This document shows positions 10,018 to 63,231 of a DNA stretch of 64,000 nt, piece by piece. This DNA is from a phage. The position numbers and the translations under genes are program-made. Where the stretch lies: sequence record OZ556245.1. One strand, written 5' to 3'. The first letter of the stretch is position 1. Every line of letters begins with the position of its first letter. The notes below the pieces were generated by a model. The model did no database searches. It had not been told where the DNA came from and saw only the letters and a program-made list of their open reading frames with translations.

Positions 10018-10061
10018 AGTTATCTCTCACTTGTTAAAAAGATTTTATACTCCGCGGGACC

Positions 10062-10091
10062 ATTATACTCTGGTCCCAAGAGTTTGTAAAC
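10062..10091 (-). promoter_or_regulatory. early promoter with palindrome GGGACCA/TGGTCCC flanking the -10
   Basis: GTTTAC - 18 nt - GAGTATAAT; 7-bp inverted repeat around -10. Confidence 0.5.
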
Positions 10092-11136: not shown

Positions 11137-11160
11137 TTTATTATCCTCAGTAGCTATGGT

Positions 11161-11193
11161 GTTATAATACCACAACTAACCGAGGAAGTAAAC
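11161..11193 (-). promoter_or_regulatory. early promoter
   Basis: GTTTAC ... TGGTATTATAAC. Confidence 0.5.
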
Positions 11194-53297: not shown

Positions 53298-54284
53298 TTA
53301 TTTCAGAAGAGTAACCTCAGCAATTTCTTCCCAACCGTTTTTGTCGGTCATAATAAAGTCAGCAAGATAAAGAGCAGTACGCAGTGAAACATTGCGTAAA
53401 CGATTAACATTAACTTTCATCCATGATAATGCTTTATAAGTTTCTTCATCAGAAAGACCGCGCTTTTGCATCATGTCAGTTGAAAGAATAACATCTTCAA
53501 CCCTGACCATAATTTCTTCATTAGTGTGAACACCCAAATCTAAATAAACCGAGCGGGACACTAATGCTTGTAAATGTGGAGCAAGTTTAGTACCACGGTC
53601 TAATTCGCGGTCAATGTCAACGTTTGTGATAAAAACAATCGTTCCTTTAAATTCAAACTCACGCTCAATGCCTTTTTCTTCTAAGTAAGAAGACGCAGTG
53701 CTCCAGCAGACTTTACGGGTCTCTCCAGTGTCCAGAGCGGCTTTTAGAAGATTAAGAATATCCATATCAGAGAAAACATCCACATCATCAATCAAAAGGA
53801 CAGAATTCTCTTCACGATTATTCCAAAGCTGCTCATAAAGACCAATACCAGAGATTTTACCATTAATGCTTTTATATTCAATGTATCCAATATCATTTGC
53901 TTTATTCAAAGCTTTATCTAAAGAATACGTTTTACCAATACCTGCTGCGCCAGAGATAATTAATGAACGAATATTTCCATTAATAATACCATTCGTCATC
54001 ATTCCCATAACATTAAATCTTTTATTAATGCGGGTTTTCATATCTTCATATGATTCTTTAACTTCTTCAACTTTTACACCATCATATGAAATATCTGATT
54101 TGTAAACCCAAACACCGCGACGCTTACCGTCAATTTCAACAAAAACTTTACCATCTCCTTGTGCATCTACCGGAGCATTATCTGGGAACCATTCGCCTAA
54201 GAGCTCAAAAGTTCCAGAGATTTCTTTACCGAAGTAGATACCCTTATTGATAGTTACAGTTTTCATTTTATTCTCCAATTTCAC
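53298..54284 (-). CDS. AAA+ family ATPase (328 aa)
   Basis: Walker A GAAGIGKT, Walker B VLLIDDVD, sensor-1-like FITN. Confidence 0.65.
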   Translation of the reverse strand: MKLENKMKTVTINKGIYFGKEISGTFELLGEWFPDNAPVDAQGDGKVFVEIDGKRRGVWVYKSDISYDGVKVEEVKESYEDMKTRINKRFNVMGMMTNGIINGNIRSLIISGAAGIGKTYSLDKALNKANDIGYIEYKSINGKISGIGLYEQLWNNREENSVLLIDDVDVFSDMDILNLLKAALDTGETRKVCWSTASSYLEEKGIEREFEFKGTIVFITNVDIDRELDRGTKLAPHLQALVSRSVYLDLGVHTNEEIMVRVEDVILSTDMMQKRGLSDEETYKALSWMKVNVNRLRNVSLRTALYLADFIMTDKNGWEEIAEVTLLK

Positions 54285-54335
54285 ATTTGTTTTGATAGGG
54301 TAATAGTATCACACTACTACCCTACTGTAAACAAT

Positions 54336-54599
54336 TTATTTTAATGTTTGCCAAATTTTTACTGCTTCGCGACGAGATACTTCTACAGCTCCAAGTTCTA
54401 CGGCTTTTTGGCGTCGGCGAGCATGTAAGTCATAATGTTTAATGCGTTTATCTTGAAACCAAGAACGTTTCATTCCTATTGCTTCTGCCATTTTATGAAG
54501 CTCTTCAATATCTCCATCAGTGAACATATGACAATTTTTAGTTGGATGACCGCGAAGTTTCCATCCATGATTCATTAAAACATCTACGTAAACTGTCAT
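54336..54599 (-). CDS. DUF4031-like small protein (87 aa)
   Basis: MTVYVD...CHMFTDGDIEELHKMAEAIGMKRSWFQ...HYDL pattern; translationally coupled to upstream 49-aa ORF. Confidence 0.5.
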   Translation of the reverse strand: MTVYVDVLMNHGWKLRGHPTKNCHMFTDGDIEELHKMAEAIGMKRSWFQDKRIKHYDLHARRRQKAVELGAVEVSRREAVKIWQTLK

Positions 54600-54745
54600 T
54601 GATTCTGCTCCAAATATGTTTCTATAATTTTCTGAGCGAGATAAACTGCGTTATCTTCAGTTGCATCTTCTAAGAAATTTTCAAAATAAACTGAAATTTC
54701 TTCTGTGTCAATCAACTTTTTTACTTCAATTAACGTAGTTTTCAT
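54596..54745 (-). CDS. small acidic protein (49 aa)
   Basis: hand-translated MKTTLIEVKKLIDTEEISVYFENFLEDATEDNAVYLAQKIIETYLEQNQ; ATG directly after conserved leader GGGGAATAAA; stop overlaps next ATG. Confidence 0.4.
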   Translation of the reverse strand: MKTTLIEVKKLIDTEEISVYFENFLEDATEDNAVYLAQKIIETYLEQNQ

Positions 54746-54777
54746 TTTATTCCCCAAATCCGTATCAGTTGATAGTT

Positions 54778-54809
54778 GTATAGTACCATAAAGCTTTATG
54801 CTTGTAAAC
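54778..54809 (-). promoter_or_regulatory. early promoter with conserved leader (cassette copy)
   Basis: GTTTAC ... GGTACTATAC plus leader ending GGGGAATAAA. Confidence 0.5.
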
Positions 54810-54839
54810 CGTTTTGTGAAAAAATTTTGAAATAAAAAA

Positions 54840-54860
54840 GGGAGCCCGAAGGCTCCCTAT
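54840..54860 (-). terminator. UUCG-tetraloop hairpin after nucleotidyltransferase gene
   Basis: AGGGAGCCUUCGGGCUCCCUUUUUU. Confidence 0.6.
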
Positions 54861-55873
54861 CATTTATAATAACTTCGATGGTTTTCAAGATAAACCCTCT
54901 CAAGGAAGTCATCCCAAAAACACATGTCTACTTTTTGCTGCATACCGTTCTTAGAAGCTTCAATGGATGCTGCTTCTACTTGATCGACCACATCTTCCAA
55001 AAACTCTTGAACAGTTTTAAATGGATGTTTACCCAACTTCACGTCGAGAATAAATGGAGCGTCTTGAAGTGGATAGACTAAGTCACCAGTTTTGTAAATT
55101 TCCAATAGTTGGAGTCCACCACGGCAAGCATGACTCAGAGCTTTCCAGTCAATGCCCTCATTAGCTTCGGCCTTACGAGCGCGTTCGCCGTATTCAGCAT
55201 CAAGTTTATTCAAAGATTGCTTAAGCTCGATAAGAGAAAGCGTTGTTTGATATTTACGACCCAACACGGTGTAGAACGTTTGTGGGCCTGTTTTCTCATG
55301 ATTATGGAATACCCATTCACAGAATTCGTTCTCTGGAAGACGATGCTTAATATCTTCAACTTTAGTTCGACGCTGCTTAATGGAACCGTCTTCTTGGTAA
55401 TCAACCCATTGCTCAGGGATTTGATTAACTACTTTCAATACATCACGTAATGCGGCCAAACGAGAACCCTTAACACCGTATTTAGAAGCTTGCTTGCGAA
55501 CATATCCTAAATAGGATTTCATGTTAGTCGTATAAAAACGAGAACGATTGTCTTGAATAAACTTCCATACATCAGGCAAATCAGATTTAACCACTAGTTC
55601 CGGTGGAGTGTGGAGCATATCCAATGCTACAGTTTCACCATCTGCAGCTAATTTAAAGAAATACTTAAGACTATATAGTTCATGGTCAATATCATCTTTA
55701 GTGTTTTTAGATGATGTGTTGTTAGTGTTTTTACTCATATGCTCTTTAACATTTCCGATAAGAATATCGCGAGCAGGAGGAACAAAGATTTCTTTAAAAT
55801 CTACATCAGATTCTGGAGTAGAAGTTCCATAAAGATGACTACCAAAATAGCTTTTCATTACTGTTTTCATCAT
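54860..55873 (-). CDS. Pol-beta-superfamily nucleotidyltransferase (337 aa)
   Basis: N-terminal GS-x10-SDVD nucleotidyltransferase signature (GSHLYGTSTPESDVDF). Confidence 0.55.
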   Translation of the reverse strand: MMKTVMKSYFGSHLYGTSTPESDVDFKEIFVPPARDILIGNVKEHMSKNTNNTSSKNTKDDIDHELYSLKYFFKLAADGETVALDMLHTPPELVVKSDLPDVWKFIQDNRSRFYTTNMKSYLGYVRKQASKYGVKGSRLAALRDVLKVVNQIPEQWVDYQEDGSIKQRRTKVEDIKHRLPENEFCEWVFHNHEKTGPQTFYTVLGRKYQTTLSLIELKQSLNKLDAEYGERARKAEANEGIDWKALSHACRGGLQLLEIYKTGDLVYPLQDAPFILDVKLGKHPFKTVQEFLEDVVDQVEAASIEASKNGMQQKVDMCFWDDFLERVYLENHRSYYK

Positions 55874-56355
55874 TCAGCCTTATATTCAATAACAGGACAT
55901 ACTTTAGCTTTACGCGCTTTTAAAAATTCGACGATAATAGATTTCTTGGGTTGAATAGGCTCAAGTCCATTTTTGATTCGTTCTTCGTTTTGTACAATGA
56001 GCTCAATTTCTTTATTGAGCTTTCGGTCGTTATATTTGTCTAACAACCAGGAAGGACCAATTACCGCCCCGACAGCAATAAGAACCATGACCGATAATGC
56101 TAAAATGCCTATACCAATTGAAGCCGGAACTAATGTCCATAGGCTACTAAAGACAAAGAATTTAATTAAAATTTCTTGGCCAATTATTGCGGTACCCGCT
56201 AAAGTTGCAAATCCAACAATTGAAACAGCTAATACCGGGAGAAACGTTTTCCAAAAATAAGCACATAACGTTTTTGGACGATTCCATGTGCTGTTAAATG
56301 CCGAGTAAATTTTATAGTGCCAAGAGTTTTCATTAATAACCATAATTATAATCAT
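55870..56355 (-). CDS. integral membrane protein (161 aa)
   Basis: multiple hydrophobic helices. Confidence 0.5.
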   Translation of the reverse strand: MIIIMVINENSWHYKIYSAFNSTWNRPKTLCAYFWKTFLPVLAVSIVGFATLAGTAIIGQEILIKFFVFSSLWTLVPASIGIGILALSVMVLIAVGAVIGPSWLLDKYNDRKLNKEIELIVQNEERIKNGLEPIQPKKSIIVEFLKARKAKVCPVIEYKAE

Positions 56356-56873
56356 CCTTTCATTGAAGGTGTAACAGTTGTTAAATACTTAATCATAGCT
56401 TCAGCTTCTGATTTTGATAATGAAATTTCTCCATTGTTTTGACGAATAGAAATAAAATCCGGATGACGGTCACCACCAGCTTTTAAAACACACATATAAG
56501 TATCAGTTTCATCTTCAATATCTGAAATGATTGAAGCAGTTCCACATGAATGTGGTTTTTGATAAATCAATGCAGCTTTTCTTCCACCGTTTGACTGTTC
56601 ATAAACTTTTAACACATCAAACAAATCACTTCTTTTGTCAATAGCTAAGATGTTGTTTTCATCTTCAATGTTAAATCCTTCGGATACTTCATAAAGTGTC
56701 ACCCATAAATCACCTATATCAATAACAGCGTTCACTTTTCCATGACTTTCAAGAGCATGACAAATTTTCTTGATTTCATCATAACTCATTTTAATAATAT
56801 CATCTCCTTGAATAAGAAAGATGTCATTTTTAAATTCAACACGAATTAAACCGCTTTCACTTGAAATAAACAT
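56352..56873 (-). CDS. hypothetical protein (173 aa), paralog of next gene
   Basis: C-terminal SKSEAEAMIKYLTTVTPSM matches TKDEAIALKTYLDSVIPTM in 56880..57443. Confidence 0.5.
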   Translation of the reverse strand: MFISSESGLIRVEFKNDIFLIQGDDIIKMSYDEIKKICHALESHGKVNAVIDIGDLWVTLYEVSEGFNIEDENNILAIDKRSDLFDVLKVYEQSNGGRKAALIYQKPHSCGTASIISDIEDETDTYMCVLKAGGDRHPDFISIRQNNGEISLSKSEAEAMIKYLTTVTPSMKG

Positions 56874-56879
56874 ATTTCC

Positions 56880-57443
56880 TCACTTTGAAATCATAGTTGG
56901 AATGACAGAATCGAGATAAGTCTTTAGCGCAATAGCTTCGTCTTTGGTAAATGTGACAATATGTGAACGAAAATCATCAATTTGACGAATAGTTAAGACA
57001 TCTCCATCTTCATAGCATTTTGACACATTTAAAACAGTTTCATCATTTTGATCGCACTGATCGCAAGCGTTAGTAATAATAGCATTGCAATTTTTGAGCC
57101 ATTTTAAACTATGTTTTCTTTCATTAGAATAATAAAAATATTTAATCTTATCTATAAAACTATCCCAATGGATAACTGATAAACACATTGACTCACTTTT
57201 AATATTAAATCCTGGACATGAAGAATAAAAATGAATTTTGTGCTCATCATTGATGCTTACTATTTTATCAGTATAAGGATATTCAATTTGGGTTAAATGA
57301 ATGATTTCGCTAGGAGTAAAATATAGCATATCATCTTCTTGTGTCAAGCGATACATGTTATTTACTTTTTCTATAGCCAATTCACCAAAAAGCGGACTAA
57401 CTTCTAATACTAATCGTTTCATATTAATCCTTTTTACTGACAT
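56880..57443 (-). CDS. hypothetical Cys-rich protein (187 aa), paralog of previous gene
   Basis: shared C-terminal motif. Confidence 0.5.
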   Translation of the reverse strand: MSVKRINMKRLVLEVSPLFGELAIEKVNNMYRLTQEDDMLYFTPSEIIHLTQIEYPYTDKIVSINDEHKIHFYSSCPGFNIKSESMCLSVIHWDSFIDKIKYFYYSNERKHSLKWLKNCNAIITNACDQCDQNDETVLNVSKCYEDGDVLTIRQIDDFRSHIVTFTKDEAIALKTYLDSVIPTMISK

Positions 57444-63173: not shown

Positions 63174-63201
63174 GTTATTCTCCTCTTAACTGATAGAAAA
63201 A

Positions 63202-63231
63202 TTATACCACAGTCAAGAGGAAAAGTAAACA
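63202..63231 (-). promoter_or_regulatory. early promoter upstream of regB
   Basis: GTTTAC - 17 nt - TGGTATAAT. Confidence 0.55.

Follow-up and report, generated by a model that had tools for sequence, protein, structure and literature searches.

A DUF4031 gene and a small acidic gene form an early cassette between nrdC.11 and nrdC.10 that is missing from phage T4

Two overlapping genes of opposite charge

What are two tightly overlapping small genes, one encoding an acidic and the other a basic protein, doing in a T4-like phage at a site where T4 itself has neither, and do their products belong together? We followed up this question in a window of 64,000 nucleotides of phage DNA (sequence record OZ556245.1), where the region of interest is 95% to 99.6% identical to many genomes of Tequatrovirus (T4-like) phages. 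A sequence-only reading of the locus had described an acidic open reading frame (ORF) of 49 codons, beginning immediately after a promoter-leader element, whose stop overlaps the start of an 87-aa DUF4031-like protein, and had likened the arrangement to toxin–antitoxin (TA) or inhibitor–target pairs. Both ORFs (54596–54745 and 54336–54599, respectively) and their ATGA overlap are present as described; all local genes, the two-gene pair included, lie on the minus strand, a point absent from that reading.

The small gene runs from an ATG at 54745 to a stop at 54596 and encodes a protein (MKTTLIEV...LEQNQ) with a pI of 4.13 and a net charge of −7.5, which belongs to phrog_6888, a family restricted to T4-like phages. 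The program-made ORF list also contains a TTG-initiated, 53-aa version of this ORF, which is an unlikely start: it would fall inside the Shine–Dalgarno (SD) sequence, and all homologues begin with MK. The second gene (ATG at 54599, stop at 54336) encodes a basic protein with a pI of 9.77 and a net charge of +6. Its affiliation to DUF4031, for which a profile search had been recommended, is secure: the protein gives a full-length match to the Pfam family (PF13223; 76.7 bits against a gathering cut-off of 25.6, E = 1.6e-21, model positions 7 to 73 of 76) and matches phrog_4887 with an E-value of 3.5e-44. At the junction of the two ORFs (CAATGACAG), the TGA stop and the ATG start share 4 nucleotides (ATGA), and a GGAG SD motif lies 8 nucleotides upstream of the DUF4031 start, within the small ORF. 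Overlaps of this kind are routine in the genome, with 4-nucleotide overlaps occurring in 7 of 33 adjacent gene pairs of the homologous annotated region.

Selection on the two genes was assessed across versions from Tequatrovirus, Karamvirus, Jiaodavirus, Gelderlandvirus (Salmonella phage CGG4-1), and Citrobacter phage Moon. The dN/dS ratios are 0.09 to 0.33 for the small ORF, with synonymous sites near saturation in this between-genus comparison, and 0.04 to 0.13 for DUF4031; the small ORF evolves 2 to 3 times faster than its neighbor. The small protein retains 12 invariant residues despite an identity of about 40% to 45% between clades, and it has a conserved face made up of E30-D31-N32 and I40-I41-E42-x-Y44. 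Because purifying selection acts on them across genera, both ORFs are real genes rather than chance ORFs, and the lack of conservation of the small ORF that had been named as grounds for rejecting the paired arrangement is not observed. The AlphaFold2 model of the small protein is a three-helix bundle (pLDDT 86.9). Among 5.8 billion proteins, its family comprises 18 clusters, every one from T4-like phages; no sequence relationship was detected outside the family, and a profile of the small protein matched nothing at approximately 70 distant DUF4031 loci. The acidic protein arose within the T4-like lineage.

The same data bear on the idea that the 49-codon ORF is nothing more than a uORF, a leader translated to bring ribosomes to DUF4031. 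Such a role would fit an ORF that is very short and overlaps the next start codon, but it is contradicted by the pattern of selection and the invariant residues, and it sits poorly with the confident three-helix model, the existence of a PHROG family for the product, and the SD motif that DUF4031 has of its own. We consider a bare leader extremely improbable.

A 479-bp insertion, absent from T4, between repeated promoter-leader elements

The main structural fact about the locus, which the sequence-only reading did not contain, is that the pair constitutes a 479-bp insertion relative to T4 and that the insertion is bounded by repeated promoter-leader elements. It is located between homologues of nrdC.11 (54860–55873, minus strand; 337 aa, RlaP-type nucleotidyltransferase) and nrdC.10 (53298–54266, minus strand; 322 aa, AAA-type ATPase-like), both of which lie outside the cassette. 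In the T4 annotation, nrdC.10 directly follows nrdC.11 at a distance of 114 nucleotides, and both T4 and T6 match just the intergenic part of a 561-nucleotide query spanning the cassette. On the upstream side, the window shares T4's sequence as far as ATGAAAACT, with identity from the terminator via the promoter to ...GGATTTGG(G/A)GAATAAAATGAAAACT, after which the window diverges into the small ORF. On the downstream side, the match to T4 resumes at GGAGAATAAAATGAAAACT-GTAACT..., the start of nrdC.10.

The junctions fall in 19-nucleotide direct repeats of a leader comprising an SD sequence, the ATG, and the codons that follow it. Copy 1 (GGGGAATAAAATGAAAACT; 54737–54755, minus strand; repeat family D3) supplies the SD, the start, and the M-K-T codons of the small ORF and marks the upstream junction, and copy 2 (GGAGAATAAAATGAAAACT; 54258–54276, minus strand) supplies the SD and start of nrdC.10 and marks the downstream junction, 479 nucleotides from copy 1. 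A single crossover in this SD/ATG/MKT microhomology of about 20 nucleotides interconverts the T4 and window arrangements.

The promoter-leader element that had been proposed upstream of the small ORF is real and consists of a terminator hairpin, an early promoter, and the SD/ATG leader. The hairpin, recovered in a terminator scan immediately after nrdC.11 (54839–54858, minus strand; GGGAGCC-UUCG-GGCUCCC followed by a U-run), is an 8-bp, GC-rich structure identical in T4. The promoter (GTTTAC-N18-TACTAT; 54780–54809, minus strand), identified by pattern scan and T4 alignment as the one driving the cassette, is identical to the nrdC.10 promoter of T4, is followed on its 3' side by GGGGAATAAAATG, and has an equivalent in Yersinia phage fPS-65 that is annotated as a predicted early promoter. 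Across the window, the early-promoter pattern GTTTAC-N17-19-TAYWAT is matched 16 times, where chance would give 0.15, and every match is on the minus strand (1003–63230).

A second early promoter of the same form (GTTTAC-N18-TACTAT; 54303–54332, minus strand) begins 3 nucleotides past the DUF4031 stop and drives nrdC.10; it differs from the promoter upstream of the pair, and the same arrangement recurs in all lineages examined. Its spacer and −10 box are enclosed by a strong hairpin (54287–54334, minus strand; a 14-bp inner stem at 54295–54325 plus an outer helix; −20.9 kcal/mol, z = −5.7), which is the strongest among the 16 promoter regions in the window and lies at the 3' end of the cassette in read-through RNA. 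A comparable hairpin, built from other stem sequences, follows DUF4031 in each of the 6 pair-carrying lineage variants, and not in the T4-like Serratia phage PS2. RNAalifold returned no consensus for this 3' hairpin across lineages, because the register of the stems differs between lineages.

Elements with this anatomy are known from T4-like phages as promoter-early stem-loops (PeSLs). PeSL-mediated modular shuffling has been described for RB49/phi1 and PST/T4 (PMC2839356, PMC4122927); crossovers sequenced in PeSL mini-circles map between the −10 box, the SD, and the ATG (Arbiol et al. 2010, PMC2839356), and the promoter consensus in PST/T4 PeSLs is TTTACW-N17-TAYWAT (Comeau et al. 2014, PMC4122927). 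At both flanks of the cassette, a sigma-70-like early promoter is followed by an SD and a start codon. The terminator at 54839–54858 provides the stem-loop of the upstream PeSL just ahead of its promoter, and the downstream hairpin overlaps its promoter. The locus also displays an indel between close relatives with the junction in a repeated element, T4 and T6 being without the 479 bp. We have high confidence in this cassette anatomy and in the indel relative to T4.

Sequences matching the 561-nucleotide query region are present in 709 phage records, of which 157 hold at least 80% of the query; the cassette is therefore accessory and dispensable.

Several features of the surrounding region deserve mention in their own right. 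Of the 16 early promoters, four have their spacer and −10 box enclosed in a strong hairpin (z = −4.9 to −6.6; minus strand in every case, at 54287–54334, 10037–10091, 11139–11193, and 63176–63230), and these may represent a compact PeSL variant in which a terminator or 3'-end stabilizer overlaps the next promoter. Several of the 16 have near-identical spacers, e.g., ACCACAAGGATGTGGT, and the repeated promoters are potential recombination sites throughout the region. Upstream of nrdC.11, at the site of T4's mobD (homing endonuclease), the window encodes a 161-aa predicted membrane protein (55870–56355, minus strand) that is only ~55% identical to its counterpart in relatives that are otherwise 97% to 100% identical (fPS-65 and the genomes at loci L018 and L022); this slot is a further variable one beside the cassette. 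Two adjacent genes (56352–56873 and 56880–57443, minus strand) encode proteins of 173 and 187 aa that have diverged as tandem paralogues (27% identity, E = 4e-10) and whose C-terminal tail, "...EA.A...YL..V.P.M", is conserved; they occupy the stretch upstream of nrdC.11 where T4 has mobD and mobD.1. The nrdC.10 and nrdC.11 homologues carry the label "thioredoxin" in many GenBank phage records, a label that seems to have spread from the "nrdC.x" locus names, and the fPS-65 annotation shows 2 CDSs in place of the intact 337-aa nrdC.11 homologue. Papers on nrdC.10 and nrdC.11 make no mention of the two-gene insert.

Distribution and co-inheritance of the pair

The pair occupies 2 genomic positions. 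In Tequatrovirus and Karamvirus, it sits in the nrdC.11–nrdC.10 interval; the other position, ~1.6 kb downstream of nrdC.10 and among other neighbors, is the one seen in Jiaodavirus (Klebsiella phages), Gelderlandvirus, and phage Moon. At both positions, the 2 genes overlap by 4 nucleotides, and the GTTTAC box of a downstream early promoter follows 0 to 6 nucleotides past the DUF4031 stop. An early promoter lies 58 to 67 nucleotides upstream of the small ORF in all lineages but Karamvirus, and in Jiaodavirus a UUCG hairpin precedes it. In the Karamvirus genomes (loci L004 and L007; 2443–3385), nrdC.11 and the pair are separated by 3 extra small genes, of 72, 94, and 84 aa. Since the acidic 72-aa gene overlaps the small ORF at its start, no promoter directly precedes the pair.

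Searches of the phage collection with tblastn recovered a window-type small ORF in 159 records and DUF4031 at no less than 90% identity in 159, with the same counts per host genus, and a Jiaodavirus-type small ORF in 150 records against 152 with DUF4031 at 60% to 80% identity. The small ORF is thus present in about 309 phage records from at least 5 lineages (the 4 genera named above and phage Moon), at the 2 genomic positions. We conclude that the 2 genes shuffle as one unit.

A few deposited genomes depart from this pattern. The small ORF is frameshifted next to an intact DUF4031 in Klebsiella phage KPV15 (locus L026, 2296–2504) and in Shigella phage SF2-1, and the DUF4031 protein record of Shigella phage CT01 is just 49 aa long; these anomalies may have arisen in sequencing, or one partner may be decaying naturally.

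Does joint inheritance signify a joint function? Because the small gene is co-inherited with DUF4031, we suggest that its product is a partner or regulator of the DUF4031 protein. The co-inheritance could, however, just reflect the missing recombination site (PeSL) between the 2 genes, which would then be unrelated accessory early genes sharing a promoter. Hyperplastic regions of T4 are indeed full of unrelated small ORFs, many with the same 4-nucleotide overlap (the 7 of 33 pairs above), DUF4031 occurs solo elsewhere, PS2 carries DUF4031 without the small gene, and the rates at which the 2 genes evolve differ by the factor of 2 to 3 already given. Against a purely passive linkage, the pairing has outlasted a divergence of about 55% in the amino-acid sequence of the small protein, in 5 or more lineages and at 2 positions, while all other neighbors changed, and across the roughly 309 records the small gene never occurs without DUF4031, as judged from matching totals of records and organisms rather than from a record-by-record intersection. 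On balance, we regard a chance association of unrelated genes as unlikely, although it retains some weight, and a physical partnership of the 2 products as a tentative but serious proposition.

Function of the pair and comparison with known systems

The DUF4031 protein belongs to a large family, with 7,291 clusters at 50% identity (E ≤ 0.001), which occurs in diverse phages and some bacterial contigs; a scan of bacterial genomes with a narrow pattern yielded only 9 loci, their context blurred by ORF noise in high-GC sequence. The AlphaFold2 model is a compact alpha/beta domain (beta-beta-alpha-beta-alpha-alpha, pLDDT 93.8). An alignment of 53 homologues, reaching down to about 40% identity, identified invariant residues that are all present in the window protein (D6, H24, Q49, H55-Y56-D57, and G70 in its numbering); L34 and A38 are invariant too, and R45, W47, and R63 nearly so. 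To judge from the alignment, such a set of residues would suit an active site or one that binds a ligand rather than a host-specific binding surface. Searches of PDB sequences with phmmer and a profile produced no match, and hence no solved structure for the family; nor did we find an informative structural neighbor, a recurrent weak Pfam match across the 53 members, or a second Pfam domain in the 10 longest of the 150 best DUF4031 matches. In the literature, "DUF4031" and "PF13223" each appear in one paper, merely as table entries.

In nearly all other phages, DUF4031 is solo, with heterogeneous upstream neighbors (62 distant loci tabulated). The 115 ORFs flanking distant DUF4031 loci are likewise heterogeneous and include DUF5131 (4 cases), dTMP kinase (2 cases), and single instances of DpdA, a 5-hmdU DNA kinase (hmdU kinase), a TET-associated glycosyltransferase (TAGT), and a methylase, lending these neighborhoods a faint DNA-modification or nucleotide-metabolism flavor. 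DUF5131 (phage Gp37/Gp68-like) was additionally seen 3 genes away at one locus, beyond the 4 immediate neighbors; the loci concerned are L015/L016 (593–1726), L028 (1509–2501), and L040 (1620–2501). We infer that DUF4031 is most likely a small enzyme or a nucleic-acid- or nucleotide-binding factor.

A more specific proposal, which we regard as improbable on present evidence, makes DUF4031 a minimal metal-dependent enzyme acting on nucleic acids or nucleotides. Its site would consist of the Asp/His/His-Tyr-Asp residues on the three-stranded sheet, followed by a Gly-Ala hairpin between 2 basic helices, and T4-like phages would have provided it with a dedicated acidic three-helix inhibitor or specificity subunit, the cassette being a phage-borne enzyme-plus-immunity pair for host takeover or for competition between co-infecting phages. 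If true, the enzyme-plus-immunity proposal would open up a fully uncharacterized family of more than 7,000 clusters.

The likeness to TA or inhibitor–target pairs put forward in the sequence-only reading stands in part. Tight linkage, translational coupling, the acidic/basic combination, and co-inheritance fit a binding partner or inhibitor, whereas the TA analogy itself is not supported. As a TA or toxin–immunity pair, DUF4031 would be a toxic effector that the acidic protein neutralizes stoichiometrically, a notion encouraged by the acidic gene upstream of the basic one with the 4-nucleotide overlap, by the enzyme-like invariant residues, and by the strict co-occurrence of both genes in T4-like phages. 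Yet neither protein matches a toxin, antitoxin, or defense family in Pfam, NCBIfam, or PADLOC, and the flanking genes yielded nothing relevant in these searches. At the 62 distant phage loci and in PS2, DUF4031 has no conserved partner. Small acidic ORFs were found upstream of distant DUF4031 genes in 8 of 62 cases and downstream in 2 of 53, a difference that is not significant and comes from crude ORF calls, so that analogous acidic upstream partners are suggestive at most. The promoter is a generic early one, common to nrdC.10 of T4, with no cassette-specific operator apparent; a strictly lytic phage would have no evident use for addiction; and some deposited genomes keep DUF4031 intact next to an apparently frameshifted small ORF. 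As for the opposite charges that had helped to prompt the comparison, DUF4031 proteins are basic throughout the family (median pI 9.2), so an acidic partner does not account for their positive charge. The cassette is most probably not a TA addiction module, and a toxic effector with its neutralizer is, in our estimation, very doubtful.

The explanation that we favor, and consider probable, is a dispensable PeSL-type early cassette that is gained and lost as one 479-bp unit and in which the small protein is a likely partner or regulator of DUF4031. Gain and loss would proceed by recombination in the repeated leader of promoter, Shine–Dalgarno, and ATG-AAA-ACT, with T4 representing the empty site. 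After infection, the host sigma-70 RNA polymerase would transcribe both genes from the upstream early promoter, DUF4031 would be translated both by coupling at the ATGA overlap and from its own SD, and the strong promoter-embedded hairpin would mark the 3' end of the unit. The cargo would be the DUF4031 protein together with the 49-aa acidic three-helix protein, the latter presumably dedicated to binding or regulating DUF4031, as its co-inheritance suggests.

Parts of this picture are already known, since hundreds of records list the genes as hypothetical or DUF4031 and the mechanism of shuffling has been published; what is new is that DUF4031 is strictly paired with a lineage-specific partner and that the pair is mobile between two positions. 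The locus offers a clean, well-bounded case of promoter-mediated modular shuffling in T-even phages in which the shuffled unit is a conserved gene pair. A co-inherited partner in a tractable phage–host system (E. coli and T4 relatives) also provides a handle on the large, phage-centered DUF4031 family, with T4 as a natural "empty site" control for the cassette.

Several known systems invite comparison. T-even phages have small acidic early proteins that work by binding to a protein target and blocking it, examples being DNA mimics such as Arn and the antitoxin Dmd. The 49-aa protein resembles them in size, acidity, early expression, and lineage-restricted distribution, a comparison intended as a lead only; proteins of the Arn/Dmd type have host-factor targets, whereas the conserved neighbor of the 49-aa protein is a phage protein.

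With type II TA operons, the locus shares a compact, co-transcribed bicistronic layout in which a small upstream acidic gene overlaps a small downstream basic gene, an overlap that the 7 local gene pairs display equally. Unlike in those systems, a cognate antitoxin does not accompany the putative "toxin" wherever it occurs, DUF4031 being usually solo (approximately 70 distant loci and PS2). The small protein is modeled as an acidic three-helix bundle, with no DNA-binding antitoxin fold predicted, no autoregulatory operator specific to the cassette is apparent, the promoter being the one that T4 uses for nrdC.10, there is no family match, and the carrier is a lytic phage.

A further likeness is to PeSL cassettes, with which the locus shares a terminator hairpin, a sigma-70-like early promoter, an SD, and an ATG around small accessory ORFs in a hyperplastic region, as well as presence or absence that varies among close relatives and a crossover that would lie between the −10 box, the SD, and the ATG. 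It differs from published PeSLs, in which the stem-loop lies upstream of the promoter, in that the downstream element has its hairpin within the promoter in place of a separate upstream stem-loop, and it differs from PeSL cassettes in that the cargo is a conserved two-gene unit rather than a single ORFan.
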